A stretch of DNA of 64,000 bases, from positions 1 to 64,000 of the IMG/VR virus record IMGVR_UViG_2516653005_000001; one strand, written 5' to 3'. Made by a program: the position numbers and the translations under genes. The stretch comes from a virus (Duplodnaviria; Caudoviricetes). Below, one piece after another: positions 56,611 through 62,931 of this stretch (position 1 is its first letter; each line of letters opens with the position of its first letter). The notes beneath the pieces are model-generated. The model had not been told where the DNA came from. It did no database searches and saw only the letters and a program-made list of their open reading frames with translations.

Positions 56611-56687
56611 GCTCCAATCGTCTAACGGCTAGGACGTCAGCCCCCTCAGGCTGGAAATACGCGGTTCGAGTCCCGTTTGGAGCGCCA
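56611..56687 (+). tRNA. Atypical tRNA-Glu-like RNA: 8-nt anticodon loop CCCCUCAG and bulged T-stem (copy 1)
   Basis: GCUCCAA/UUGGAGC acceptor, Glu-type D-arm, UCAGC/GCUGG stem, ACG(C)GG/CCCGU T-stem, GCCA end; 77 nt. Confidence 0.85.
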
Positions 56688-56729
56688 TCTTCGTAACTAC
56701 TCGTTTGCTTGAATTGGAAGGATGAGCGA

Positions 56730-57320
56730 ATGCAAATCTCGTTGAAGCGCGCACTTAAACTGCGCAAGGAACTGGAAGGCCGGTTGAGCTCCATGGAGTT
56801 TCCGACCGCCGTTAATATCAGCCTGCTCACGGACCTGAGCCGCGAGCAGATCGAGACCGCTATCGAAGCGGCGTCGACGGCGATCGACAAAGCGTTCGCT
56901 CAGTACGAGCAACTGTCTCGCGTCCTCGCCGAGCTGCGCCAGAACATCGCGAAGGCCAACCTCGATAACGGTGTCGAAGCGGCGCTGTCCGAGATCGCTC
57001 ACATCGATCGCAAGATCACCATCCGGAAGAAGCTCGCCAGCATCGCGGTGATGCCGCAGATCGACGCAGTCATGGCTGAGGTCGAGTTCTCTCGCCGCGC
57101 TCTGATCTCGCCCGATACGACCAGCTATCGTTCACCGTCCAAGGCGATCGGCTTCTCGGCGGTCTCCGAAACGCTGAAGGAAGAGATCGCCGGCGAGCTG
57201 GCGCAGCTTCGGCGCGACCGCGAAGCCATCGAAGACAAGCGCGCAGCCGCCAACGCTGGCACGCGTATCACCATTGCTGATGAGGACAACGAACTGCTCC
57301 GGCAGCTCGGCATCCTCTGA
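56730..57320 (+). CDS. Coiled-coil protein (DIP1984/DUF6847-like)
   Basis: MQISLKRALKLRKEL...LR..IA.AN...R..IED....N..T.ITI; family recalled from pattern only. Confidence 0.6.
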   Translation: MQISLKRALKLRKELEGRLSSMEFPTAVNISLLTDLSREQIETAIEAASTAIDKAFAQYEQLSRVLAELRQNIAKANLDNGVEAALSEIAHIDRKITIRKKLASIAVMPQIDAVMAEVEFSRRALISPDTTSYRSPSKAIGFSAVSETLKEEIAGELAQLRRDREAIEDKRAAANAGTRITIADEDNELLRQLGIL

Positions 57321-57326
57321 CGCAAT

Positions 57327-57537
57327 GGGAGGGGTACTTGTAGAGAGATACTGAAACATTTCGCTCTTCAATGAGCGCCATTGGCAAACGGCTTTTCGTT
57401 ATCCGGAATAATCAACCAAGCCCGATCCTAGCTATCTGGGCATTCGTGAATTGATCCGGTTTATGGGCCTTCGTTGCTCGTGCTTCGTCGCTCGTTTGTG
57501 GTCGATCGTTCGTATCTCATCAACTCGTACCCCTCCC
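57327..57537 (+). ncRNA. Candidate ~210-nt ncRNA closed by a terminal stem
   Basis: gggaggggtac/gtacccctccc (11 bp) plus gagatac/gtatctc (7 bp); ends 5 nt before a tRNA. Confidence 0.55.
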
Positions 57538-57542
57538 TCCCC

Positions 57543-57617
57543 GCTCCGCTCGTCTATCGGCTAGGACGCTCGCTTCTCAGGCGAGAAAGACAGGTTCGAC
57601 TCCTGTGCGGAGCACCA
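57543..57617 (+). tRNA. tRNA-Glu(CUC), canonical
   Basis: CUCGC-UUCUCAG-GCGAG, normal T-arm, ACCA end; 75 nt. Confidence 0.93.
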
Positions 57618-57661
57618 TCGATTTCCCCTGCCCGAACTAAGCACACGGTTTCGGACGCCAG

Positions 57662-60516: not shown

Positions 60517-60538
60517 TGACGACCCATCGGAGGCGGCA

Positions 60539-60733
60539 ATGCCCGAATACTCTATTCGTGATTGCGGGCAGGAGTCGGTCAAGGTGTTCCGAAAGCGCGA
60601 GCGCTCACACTCGCTCGCGCATGCTTGGAGAACACCGAGTGGCTTCTGGATCGTCAGTGTCACCGGCCTCAAAATGGACGTAACCCCCAACAGGAAGTCC
60701 GCCAAGGACTATCTGAGGAAGTATTTCAAATGA
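60539..60733 (+). CDS. Hypothetical protein
   Basis: GGAGG RBS; stop overlaps the RtcB start. Confidence 0.6.
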   Translation: MPEYSIRDCGQESVKVFRKRERSHSLAHAWRTPSGFWIVSVTGLKMDVTPNRKSAKDYLRKYFK

Positions 60734-62073
60734 TCACCGGAGACACACTGATCCTGTGGGGCTTTAAGCCAGGCCGCTGGTTCAAACAGGCCATCGCCGA
60801 TGCCAACAAGCTGCGGAGCGACGGCCTGAGCGACGATCAGATCTTCACCTATCTGCAATCGCTGCAGCCGGTCGAGATCACGCTGCGGACGAACTCGCTT
60901 CCCTATGGCATTTTCATCGATCACAACACTGATCAAGAGCGAGCCAACGTCGAAGCTGTCGTTCGACACATGGATGCGCTGATGCGCGTGCCGACCATCA
61001 AGGATGGCGCGGTCATGCCGGACTCTTGCCCCGCCGGCGCTGCCGAAGGCACGATTCCAGTCGGCGGCGTCGTCTCCTGCGAAGACGCTATCCATCCCGG
61101 CTTCCACTCGGCGGATATCTGCTGTTCGGTCGCGATCAGCACCTTCCGCCGCGACGACAACCCGAAGGTCCTGCTCGACGCCGTCCAGGCCGTCACGCAT
61201 TTTGGACCCGGCGGGCGTTCGAGGTCGAACAACCTTGTTCCGAAGGAACTCCTGGCCAAGATGGACGGCAACCGCTTCCTGCACGAGCTGGAAGGCTATG
61301 CACGCGCCCACTTCGCCACACAGGGTGACGGCAACCACTTCGCCTACGTCGGACGGGTGAAATCAAGCGGTAAGCTGGCGCTTGTCACCCATCACGGCTC
61401 GCGTGGCTTTGGTGCTCAGGTCTACAAGCGCGGCATGGCGGCGGCCAAGAAGCACACCGCGATCGTCGCCCCGAAGGTGCCGGCACACAACGCCTGGATC
61501 AAGGCGGACAGTGACGATGGCCGCGCCTATTGGGAGGCTCTCCAGGTTGTCCGCGAATGGACCAAGGCGAACCACTTCGCGATCCACGATCTGGCCGCCC
61601 GTGCCATCGGCAACGGCGTCGACGAACGCTTCTGGAACGAGCACAACTTCGTCTTCCAGAAGAGCGACGGGCTGTTCTACCACGGCAAGGGCGCGACCCC
61701 GAATTGGTCCGGCTTCTCACCCGACGACTCCGGCCTCACGCTCGTTGCCCTGAACATGGCCGAGCCGATCTTGATGTTGGCGCACACCAACAACAAGGAA
61801 GCCCTCGGCTTTGCTCCGCACGGAGCCGGTCGCAACATGGGTCGCAGGGCATTCCTTCGCGACAATGCGCCGGAGCTTCCGGCCGGCATCGACGCCCGCT
61901 TCTACTGCGGCAAGCCCGATCTCGCAGAACTTCCGCAAGCCTATAAGGATGCGGCTTCTGTTCGAGCCCAGATCGACAAGTACCAGATCGGCCGCGTCGT
62001 CGATGAGATCATTCCCTACGGCTCGATCATGGCCGGCGATTGGGAGAAGGACGCACCATGGCGAAAGAAGTGA
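60730..62073 (+). CDS. rtcB: RtcB-family RNA ligase (divergent)
   Basis: MPD, DICCS, GDGNHF, HHGSRG, HNF, HGKGAT, HGAGR, ELPQAYKD. Confidence 0.92.
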   Translation: MITGDTLILWGFKPGRWFKQAIADANKLRSDGLSDDQIFTYLQSLQPVEITLRTNSLPYGIFIDHNTDQERANVEAVVRHMDALMRVPTIKDGAVMPDSCPAGAAEGTIPVGGVVSCEDAIHPGFHSADICCSVAISTFRRDDNPKVLLDAVQAVTHFGPGGRSRSNNLVPKELLAKMDGNRFLHELEGYARAHFATQGDGNHFAYVGRVKSSGKLALVTHHGSRGFGAQVYKRGMAAAKKHTAIVAPKVPAHNAWIKADSDDGRAYWEALQVVREWTKANHFAIHDLAARAIGNGVDERFWNEHNFVFQKSDGLFYHGKGATPNWSGFSPDDSGLTLVALNMAEPILMLAHTNNKEALGFAPHGAGRNMGRRAFLRDNAPELPAGIDARFYCGKPDLAELPQAYKDAASVRAQIDKYQIGRVVDEIIPYGSIMAGDWEKDAPWRKK

Positions 62074-62273
62074 CGTGCGAGGCATGCAACAACCATCGCT
62101 ACATCATCGCTCTGCGCGATGACGGACGGAAGGCCATCGAGGCGTGCGACAGTTGTGCCAGCCATATCCTTCCCGACGACAAAGCTGCGGCGATTGCTCG
62201 GTGGGATGGCATTGATTGCAACGAAACATACCCCTGCTACCTCAAAGATCAATCTTACAATCCGGACCTGTGA
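62058..62273 (+). CDS. Small zinc-finger protein
   Basis: CEAC ... IEACDSC. Confidence 0.6.
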   Translation: MAKEVTCEACNNHRYIIALRDDGRKAIEACDSCASHILPDDKAAAIARWDGIDCNETYPCYLKDQSYNPDL

Positions 62274-62281
62274 GCGCTGTC

Positions 62282-62569
62282 ATGGCAAGCGATATAACAT
62301 CTAGCGACTGTCGGTGTCAGAAACAGATGGGCAACGACTTCCTATTCCTCCCCGCAGGAAGTTGCCTGTTCGGCACCTGTGACAAGGACGCAAACCGGGT
62401 CGACAGCAACGATATTGTCGACCGTATCCGACGCTTCGTCGCTAGTCGCGGCGGCCCAGCGAAGGACGATAACGGCAAGCCGATTGGCAACTCGTGGCCC
62501 ATGATGCTCGAAGCCGCAGACGAGATCGAACGGCTGCGTAAAGCCATCACCTACCAGAGAGAAACATAA
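62282..62569 (+). CDS. Hypothetical protein
   Basis: DIVDRIR...EAADEIERLR phage motif; start uncertain. Confidence 0.55.
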   Translation: MASDITSSDCRCQKQMGNDFLFLPAGSCLFGTCDKDANRVDSNDIVDRIRRFVASRGGPAKDDNGKPIGNSWPMMLEAADEIERLRKAITYQRET

Positions 62570-62931
62570 TGACGACATCGACGTTGCTTGCCGCAACCAC
62601 GCGAAAGATCCTGCATGAGCGCTTCCCGGCGTGCTTTGCCGGCAAGGGCAAGGACAAGCGCCCGCTGGCGATCGGCATCCACAAGCAGGTTTTCGAGGCC
62701 GCGCCCGACCTTTCGCGCCGCTCGATCCGGCTGGCCATCCGCGACTACGTCAGCGGCTACAAATATCTACGCAACGTTCGGACCGGTGCGACACGCATCA
62801 ATCTGGACGGGTCTCTGGCCGGAGCGGTCGTCTCTGAGCACGGCGATTTCTCGCACAAGATCGCCCGTCGCATGCTGCGGACGAAGCGAGCCAAGAAGCA
62901 GGCTCGCCCGGTGATGAAGGTCGCAGCCTAG
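62569..62931 (+). CDS. ProQ/FinO-family RNA chaperone
   Basis: ERFPACF...PLAIGIH...AIRDY....YL......R..LDG...G.V..EH. Confidence 0.88.
   Translation: MTTSTLLAATTRKILHERFPACFAGKGKDKRPLAIGIHKQVFEAAPDLSRRSIRLAIRDYVSGYKYLRNVRTGATRINLDGSLAGAVVSEHGDFSHKIARRMLRTKRAKKQARPVMKVAA

Follow-up and report, generated by a model that had tools for sequence, protein, structure and literature searches.

Positions 56611-62931 of the viral DNA analysed here contain four tRNA genes of the Glu type, two of which show a rebuilt anticodon arm and a bulge in the T-stem, together with genes for the RNA ligase RtcB, a ProQ/FinO-domain protein, a radical SAM enzyme and a small synthetase core. This DNA, referred to below as the window, covers the initial 64 kb of the 100,992-base virus record IMGVR_UViG_2516653005_000001, which is classed as a provirus with an estimated completeness of 83%, and its closest annotated relative is Bradyrhizobium phage BDU-MI-1. 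We regard the segment as a mosaic accessory region that would supply and protect the decoding of GAG codons and repair RNA, probably against host nucleases targeting tRNA, and assign this reading a probability of about 0.5. The stretch appears to belong to a BDU-MI-1-like phage or prophage of Bradyrhizobium-type hosts, and not to encode one enzyme pathway. An original prediction, made from the letters of the DNA alone, had listed twelve components in a co-oriented run and interpreted them either as a dedicated pathway or as a counter-measure to a nuclease attacking tRNA-Glu. It was confirmed with ARAGORN, Rfam, Pfam and the list of open reading frames (ORFs) that all twelve are present, each on the + strand, and the interpretation as a whole was partly supported.

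Canonical and irregular tRNA-Glu genes

Two of the four Glu-type genes are canonical copies of tRNA-Glu(CUC), located at 57543-57617 and 58769-58843, which were detected by ARAGORN and scored 51.4 and 51.9 bits, respectively, with the Rfam tRNA model (RF00005, gathering score 29 bits). The other two, irregular tRNA 1 (56611-56687) and irregular tRNA 2 (57662-57738), also exceeded the gathering score, with 42.7 bits over 56611-56684 and 36.1 bits over 57662-57735. As predicted, the four are separate from the mixed group of five further tRNA genes in the window (Gly, Trp, Pro, Thr and Asn), which ARAGORN placed at 39449-45027 on the minus strand. All four encode CCA, contain CUC, and have the GCUCC acceptor stem and the D-arm UCGUCUAnCGGCUAGGA as in the tRNA-Glu genes of Bradyrhizobium; judged by acceptor stem, D-arm and YUC anticodon, they all fit tRNA-Glu. 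The canonical copies have the anticodon loop UUCUCAG, and the copy at 57543-57617 has the discriminator A73. The tRNA-Glu loops of the host Bradyrhizobium are CUUUCAC (UUC) and CUCUCAA (CUC), the latter differing from the phage loop at positions 32 and 38 (C32/A38 versus U32/G38 in the phage).

Both irregular tRNAs have an 8-nt anticodon loop, CCCCUCAG, from which U33 is missing. Pairing is possible between the C that opens this loop and the G that ends it, and would give an alternative 6-bp stem with the 6-nt loop CCCUCA. Indeed, ARAGORN at a relaxed threshold (-ps90) reported both genes as tRNA-???(ct), that is, with a 6-nt loop. One C is bulged in the 5' strand of the T-stem in both copies. 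Because of the extra loop nucleotide and this bulged C, the irregular copies measure 74 nt before CCA, compared with 72 nt in the canonical ones. The features of a canonical elongator tRNA, namely a 7-nt loop with U33 and an unbroken 5-bp T-stem, are present in the canonical pair but absent from the irregular pair. The two irregular genes are 84% identical to each other, with the same loop and the same bulge.

A single gene of this irregular build is present in BDU-MI-1, where the loop reads C-UUCUCG-G and the T-stem strand is longer by one nucleotide. No other Glu-type gene is found among the four tRNA genes of this phage, and the irregular gene lies directly upstream of the gene for a helical protein, matching the placement of irregular tRNA 1 in the window. 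CCA is encoded in all three irregular genes. When the three were compared, 98.5% of the pair cells were standard, in contrast to 17-59% in slid controls, and four stem pairs were compensatory, with both sides changed. The sixth pair of the anticodon stem, C-G, was invariant (3/3), and covariation therefore says nothing for or against it. As the irregular design recurs in BDU-MI-1 with compensatory changes in the stems, it is evidently under structural selection.

This selection bears on a simpler explanation, in which the canonical copies do no more than supply the decoding of GAG, the irregular copies have decayed into pseudogenes and the genes around them are cargo of no related function. 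With 36.8 per 1000 codons, GAG ranks third among 23 tabulated codons, behind AAG and GAC, the neighbouring genes vary between relatives, and the irregular design is rare. None of the 119 Glu-type tRNAs with the same D-arm among the viral-contig matches listed had an 8-nt loop (7 nt in 113, 6 nt in two, and four unresolved), and no further irregular copy was detected by exact-pattern scans of viral and metagenome contigs, a set outside which the window's own record possibly lies. Relaxed ARAGORN analysis of 2.1 Mb of sampled loci gave 31 rows with 6-nt or 8-nt loops among 1490 calls; nine of the 31 were this irregular Glu family, and some of the others are probably false. On the other hand, the pairing has been kept through the four compensatory changes, loop and bulge are the same in paralogues of only 84% identity, and the same +1/+1 architecture is found in the sole Glu-type tRNA of BDU-MI-1. 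These points count against pseudogenes, and we consider the explanation by codon supply unlikely.

Another explanation is that the irregular tRNAs are +1 frameshift decoders, reading GAG-R as a quadruplet for programmed recoding. An 8-nt loop is the hallmark of classic +1 suppressor tRNAs in the available text of two reports (PMC4238358; bioRxiv 10.1101/2020.12.31.424971), and the +1 frameshift suppressors SufB2 and SufJ share with the window tRNAs the one extra nucleotide of the anticodon loop. Read as eight-membered loops, the irregular tRNAs would present CCUC in the window and UCUC in BDU-MI-1. However, SufB2 and SufJ are suppressor mutants, whereas the window tRNAs are natural conserved phage genes, in which U33 is missing, the T-stem is bulged and the extra base can pair across the loop (C-G in 3/3 irregular copies, leaving 6 nt). 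In addition, an in-frame GAG is followed by G 268 times in 101 likely genes, and efficient quadruplet reading would therefore harm the phage. No recoding target was found; the scan for +1 junctions at GAG-N gave three weak candidates, which resembled ordinary overlapping gene ends. Programmed frameshifting was thus regarded as extremely improbable.

Our literature searches found no paper on phage tRNAs with 6-nt or 8-nt anticodon loops, although supplements may list some. Natural phage tRNA genes with a rebuilt anticodon arm and a bulged T-stem, kept in two phages, were likewise not found in the literature searched. A Glu-like tRNA with the same D-arm and an encoded CCA is present on two viral contigs (L156:2181-2254 and L175:125-198); it has the 6-nt loop CUUCCC, its anticodon arm being short by one nucleotide.

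A backbone common to the relatives

The gene at 56733-57320, which follows irregular tRNA 1, encodes the protein that had been described as a coiled coil. AlphaFold2 (AF2) indeed predicted an all-helical fold (predicted local distance difference test score, pLDDT, 81). Its start, like that of RtcB at 60730, was set by homologues; the ORFs of the original prediction are present, but the starts of these two proteins are not those of the longest ORFs. The 11 homologues of the helical protein have an invariant basic N-terminus, KRALKLRKELE, and the protein serves as a marker for the backbone found in the relatives. The protein matched phrog_25230 at 4.5e-5, and its best solved match was a protein of unknown function (3kdq_A, Z 10.5), a value below the caution line for helical models. 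No viral loci were matched when it was used as a single query, and an alignment query matched one viral and three genomic loci.

Six loci were compared, namely the window, BDU-MI-1 (L001), a viral contig (L192), two Bradyrhizobium genomes (L193 and L194) and a Methylobacteriaceae metagenome-assembled genome (L195). A conserved non-coding stretch of about 220 nt lies 3' of the helical-protein gene in all six, and tRNA-Glu(CUC) is located about 230 nt after this gene in the window, L193, L194 and L195. In L192, the slot held elsewhere by tRNA-Glu(CUC) is occupied by a structured RNA, designated R1. Farther downstream are RtcB in BDU-MI-1 and L195 (71% and 70% identical to the window copy, respectively), ProQ in L192, and an HD-domain gene in BDU-MI-1, L192 and L194; the genes neighbouring the backbone vary from one relative to another. 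We read the region as a conserved backbone for the production of stable RNA, into which variable cargo would have been taken.

In BDU-MI-1, an ORF annotated as 'GTP pyrophosphokinase' is found at L001:6814-7368, and ORFs resembling it by eye at the N-terminus are present at L192:9152-9778 and L194:9760-10296. An ORF of this kind fills the slot of the radical SAM and synthetase genes of the window, and the BDU-MI-1 ORF probably encodes a hydrolase of the SpoT/HD type. The tRNA-Glu(CUC) genes of L193-L195 have the loop CUCUCAA, the same as that of the chromosomal tRNA-Glu(CUC). As the helical protein, the leader and tRNA-Glu(CUC) occur together as a module in the bacterial assemblies L193, L194 and L195, the lineage probably exists as prophages or episomes.

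The non-coding stretch of the window (57321-57542, 222 nt) corresponds to a structured leader or non-coding RNA, as had been expected from the prediction of a 210-nt RNA at this place. It folded with z = -5.36, none of 200 shuffles folding equally well, and counterparts are present in BDU-MI-1 (L001:5730-5975) and in L192-L195. In the consensus fold of the six loci, 10 of the 33 pairs had double changes, and a conserved closing helix joins the ends of the leader. The leader also contains an array of about six in-phase heptads, U-N-G-U-N-N-N, at approximately 57471-57513, and T-N-G-T at every 7 nt was invariant in the six loci though their overall identity was about 60%. This array is unpaired in the consensus fold, enclosed by the long-range closing helix, and resembles a platform to which an oligomeric RNA-binding protein might bind.

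R1 is located in the window at 59184-59340 (about 155 nt), where a structured RNA had been predicted, and proved to be a member of a conserved family with strong covariation. No Rfam 15 match was obtained for it at E-values up to 5. A 9-bp stem of variable sequence caps a 23-nt loop, CCCGAAUCCCGGUCUGGUCAAGA, and is followed by a GNRA-capped hairpin and by a terminal hairpin with the loop UGGAAAG. The covariance model made for R1 was run on the window, L001, L006-L070, L071-L150, L190-L195, L202, L205, L206 and L208-L212, with L151-L189 left out, and gave ten matches, nine of them distinct. Besides the window, the copies are at L192:8812-8947, L202:2992-3149 (phage phiM12), L205:10120-10258, L206:3845-3978 and L208-L211. 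The sequence of the 9-bp stem differs in every copy, and 97.5% of its cells pair compared with 53.8% in shuffles; double changes were found in all nine pairs, which none of 500 shuffles reached. The 23-nt loop was identical in eight of the nine distinct copies, seven of these eight having been found via the loop sequence and the eighth being the query copy from the window. Conservation of R1 extends to phiM12 and phiN3, T4-like phages of Sinorhizobium in which it lies beside tRNA-His, and to further viral and metagenome contigs; it adjoins tRNA genes in unrelated alphaproteobacterial phages, and the L192 copy terminates in a U-run. On this comparative evidence, R1 constitutes a structured RNA family that is new and whose stem covaries at every pair.

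The last gene of the region (62569-62931) encodes a ProQ/FinO-domain RNA-binding protein, with 76.2 bits against a cut-off of 27 in Pfam PF04352 (2.3e-21) and a match to NCBIfam ProQ at 1.4e-19. ProQ is present in both phages of the helical-protein lineage with R1, the window and L192, and the L192 protein, 48% identical to that of the window, is encoded downstream of R1. ProQ was missing from phiM12, phiN3 and three further R1-bearing records. A general link of R1 to ProQ as its partner was thus rejected, ProQ being absent from the R1 phages outside the lineage.

Independent distribution of the radical SAM and synthetase genes

The gene at 57762-58760 encodes a phage-type enzyme of the radical SAM superfamily, with 69.1 bits in Pfam PF04055 (cut-off 29.5; 6.9e-19). 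The cysteines of the CxxxCxxC motif (C36, C40 and C43) were conserved in 31/31 sequences, as were the C-terminal residues C243, C260, C297 and C301, and C305 was found in 29; these five may belong to a Cys-rich auxiliary-cluster domain. Its structural neighbours were clusters bearing SPASM (TM 0.71-0.80), and no SPASM match was obtained in Pfam. The enzyme scored under every NCBIfam equivalog cut-off, including that of MoaA (GTP 3',8-cyclase; 78.6 bits versus 284). Its Atlas cluster has 979 members, of which 97% are viral, and at least 3592 homologues were found, all with generic automatic names only; no paper describing the function of this family was found in literature searches. All-against-all clustering of ORFs from 35 loci detected no conserved neighbour. 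RtcB was near the radical SAM gene in four loci, of which L012 and L013 had an identical layout of neighbouring genes. A role as maturase of a peptide made on the ribosome and modified after translation was set aside, as no conserved small ORF adjoins the gene in the 35 loci, and a role in 7-deazaguanine or molybdenum cofactor synthesis was rejected, since the scores stayed under all equivalog cut-offs and no genes of such pathways were seen beside it in the loci.

The mini synthetase of 227 aa (59833-60516) matched Pfam tRNA-synt_2b with 31.3 bits (cut-off 29.3; 2.6e-7). Its sequence is closest to GlyRS of the alpha2 type, as indicated by NCBIfam GlyRS (9.5e-10) and by GlyRS matches in the PDB. 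The sequences FRRE and GLDR, which we take to be motifs 2 and 3, respectively, are intact, and R114, E116 and R222 were invariant in 29 sequences; the anticodon-binding domain is missing. The AF2 model (pLDDT 89) matched class II folds in Foldseek at E-values of 1e-13 to 1e-10, the cores of PheRS, GlyRS, PylRS, ProRS and SerRS being about equally good. The protein is thus predicted to be the catalytic core of a class II aminoacyl-tRNA synthetase. It resembles alpha2-type GlyRS in the sequence of the catalytic domain, in the class II fold and in motifs 2 and 3, which are invariant in the mini family, but alpha2-type GlyRS exceeds 440 aa, whereas the mini core lacks the anticodon-binding and insertion domains. 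As a core only, with 37.9 bits versus an equivalog cut-off of 312, it did not qualify as a functional GlyRS.

At least 1261 homologues of 225-260 aa were found for the mini synthetase, and the family includes jumbo phages of Caulobacter, Brevundimonas, Sinorhizobium and Xanthomonas. In some other phages the gene lies in tRNA arrays or near genes for RNA ligase or phosphoesterase, and ORF clustering showed that metallophosphoesterase and RNA ligase recur beside it, in a few loci only. Elsewhere, the gene is flanked by tRNAs of several types (Gly, Glu and Pro). Literature searches found no paper that describes the function of this family either.

The co-occurrence of the two enzymes was examined in a limited set of loci sampled by pattern, in which ORFs of foreign loci were called crudely. 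Radical SAM and mini-GlyRS genes were found within 8 kb of each other in one of 35 loci with full-length radical SAM (L009) and in none of 15 synthetase loci. In a collection of annotated phages, the radical SAM matched three records and mini-GlyRS 20, with zero overlap. Both enzymes were missing from BDU-MI-1, from the viral contig L192 and from the three genomes of L193-L195; distant host radical SAM genes were the only matches in the genomes behind the loci of the relatives. These counts show that the two enzyme genes move largely independently among the sampled phages, the single co-occurrence in L009 being the exception.

The distribution decides against a dedicated pathway joining tRNAs, radical SAM enzyme and synthetase paralogue, in which the mini synthetase would attach glycine or a different amino acid, possibly one modified by the radical SAM enzyme, to the irregular Glu-like tRNAs, leading to a new residue or to aminoacyl transfer. 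In favour of such a pathway, the genes lie side by side in one orientation in the window, and the synthetase core keeps motifs 2 and 3 without an anticodon-binding domain and could therefore act on an odd tRNA. Systems of a synthetase with a partner include PylS/PylT with PylB, and EpmA/EpmB. A CysRS (CysRS*) without an anticodon-binding domain, dedicated to the irregular tRNA-Cys selC*, is described in the available part of PMC5389517. The window resembles such pairs in having a synthetase core without this domain near irregular tRNAs and a radical SAM gene. However, the partners always co-occur in those systems, unlike the parts found here. The irregular tRNA of BDU-MI-1 is accompanied by neither enzyme, none of 16 synthetase loci has a tRNA with an irregular loop, the tRNAs beside the synthetase elsewhere are mixed, and the radical SAM gene has no conserved neighbour. 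The radical SAM enzyme also appears MoaA/SPASM-like and not an aminomutase, unlike in the Pyl and Epm systems, and the tRNAs keep the sense anticodon core CUC; a cassette of the pyrrolysine type, with a stop anticodon, was thus not found. The original prediction had named independent assortment across genomes as the outcome that would count against a single cassette, and as the components do largely assort independently, the cassette fails on its own terms. We therefore rejected it and regard a dedicated pathway as very unlikely. A 'new pathway' has no backing from the gene distribution, a result that spares effort.

Possible protection of tRNA-Glu and repair by RtcB

It is now recognised that phages and bacteria fight one of their main battles over tRNAs. 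The escape of phage tRNAs from host anticodon nucleases through changes in the anticodon loop is an established idea in the available part of PMC10264068, and similar escape is reported in the parts available of PMC11464382 and PMC11555353. The window resembles these systems, which include loop variants and the T5 tRNAs acting against PARIS and retron effectors, in that the phage has copies of a single tRNA species, its loops differ from those of the host at flanking positions, and an RNA ligase gene is nearby. In contrast, the published changes considered here are substitutions in a 7-nt loop, and the words 'insertion', 'loop size' and 'Glu' do not occur in the available part of PMC10264068; in two of the window copies, the loop is longer by one nucleotide and lacks U33 and the T-stem carries a bulge, and no matching host nuclease is known.

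RtcB, the 3'-phosphate/5'-OH RNA ligase encoded at 60730-62073, belongs to its family with 91.9 bits in Pfam PF01139 (cut-off 27; 6.7e-26), and the long ORF matched phrog_1075 at 4e-94 from residue 55 onward. The combination of RtcB with tRNAs in jumbo phages has been described as repair of nuclease-cut tRNAs in the available text of PMC7824862. The original prediction was right to caution that RtcB is common beside phage tRNAs and that functional linkage had not been shown. In tRNA repair of the T4 type, Pnkp and Rnl1 act against PrrC. The window shares with these repair systems a ligase gene next to tRNA genes, but searches found no end-healing enzyme, CCA-adding enzyme or Ro/TROVE partner in this phage genome. 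A Ro60/Y-RNA (Rsr-YrlA-RtcB) module was rejected, as no TROVE match was detected in the 100,992-base, 83%-complete record; no Y-RNA was matched in Rfam at E-values up to 5.

These features suggest the following course for a phage defending the decoding of GAG. The backbone runs from the helical protein through the leader of about 220 nt to a stable RNA, tRNA-Glu(CUC) or, in one relative, R1, and on to RtcB and/or ProQ. To this backbone the window phage would have added extra tRNA-Glu copies, the phage-type radical SAM gene and the mini GlyRS-like gene. The canonical copies would supply GAG decoding with loops unlike those of the host. If the host attacks tRNA-Glu, or tRNAs generally, the phage could reply with replacement tRNAs and with cleavage-resistant or decoy look-alikes of tRNA-Glu, and RtcB would reseal the tRNAs that are cut. 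The irregular paralogues, which keep the Glu-type acceptor, D-arm and CUC while their anticodon arm is remodelled and their T-stem bulged, would be those look-alikes. The proposal of a counter-measure to a nuclease is compatible with all observations, and its threat would have to come from a host nuclease of a kind that we did not identify. If the irregular tRNAs are nuclease-proof or are decoys, they would widen the known repertoire of counter-defence.

Several points weigh against this reading. The irregular design was found in two phages only, and its covariation was judged from three sequences. In no host did we identify a nuclease targeting tRNA-Glu. Anticodon loops of 6 or 8 nt without U33, combined with a bulged T-stem, are expected to decode poorly, and a tRNA that is resistant but functional is therefore doubtful; a decoy is the candidate alternative. 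Furthermore, tRNA genes were found within 3 kb in 7 of 35 radical SAM loci and 5 of 15 synthetase loci. As these counts are low and come without a background rate for comparison, the tie of the two enzymes to tRNA biology is weak, and the counts hint that radical SAM and mini-GlyRS are cargo of tRNA regions.

Readings outside the ribosome were also considered. We tentatively propose, at low confidence, that the irregular tRNAs form a new functional class of phage tRNA mimic, acting as nuclease decoys or as private enzyme substrates, with the helical protein and the leader as their platform for expression or assembly. The phage enzyme in the version with private substrates may be the mini GlyRS-like core. 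A related possibility is that they are non-translational mimics, serving as regulatory RNAs, as RNAs bound by the helical protein or ProQ, or as dedicated donors of Glu that the bulged T-stem and the unusual anticodon loop would exclude from the ribosome. Both irregular features are at parts of the tRNA important for decoding and for the binding of EF-Tu; both phages with the design have an irregular tRNA immediately upstream of the gene for the helical protein, and a ProQ/FinO protein is encoded nearby in the window. However, four of the six loci have the helical protein but no irregular tRNA, BDU-MI-1 has no ProQ, and no enzyme using Glu-tRNA was recognised among the neighbours with Pfam and NCBIfam. 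We consider non-translational mimics of this kind unlikely.

Apart from the tRNAs, the analysis flagged four targets: the mini GlyRS-like family with more than 1000 members, the phage radical SAM family with thousands, the leader with UNGU heptads, and the R1 RNA family.

The remaining ORFs of the region had no match in Pfam, NCBIfam or PHROG searches. They are a 101-aa ORF at 58859-59164, two small ORFs at 59366-59551 (61 aa) and 59557-59817 (86 aa), a Cys-rich 77-aa ORF at 62040-62273 and, from the ORF list, a possible 74-aa ORF at 60509-60733. The last of these shares a few bases with the synthetase-like gene at its end and a few with rtcB at its start, and the overlaps suggest translational coupling of the synthetase-like gene, the 74-aa ORF and rtcB.

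A short motif, TTGCTTGAATGCAA, was found with up to three mismatches in 13 copies in the window, compared with 4.7 expected, and none of 100 shuffles reached 13. Its sites in the window include 56705-56718, 33378-33391, 32358-32371, 10925-10938 and 51689-51702, and it also occurs in L001 near 5110 and 6560 and in L193 and L194 near 7950. In several relatives, the motif is located upstream of the gene for the helical protein, and it is probably a phage promoter or operator.

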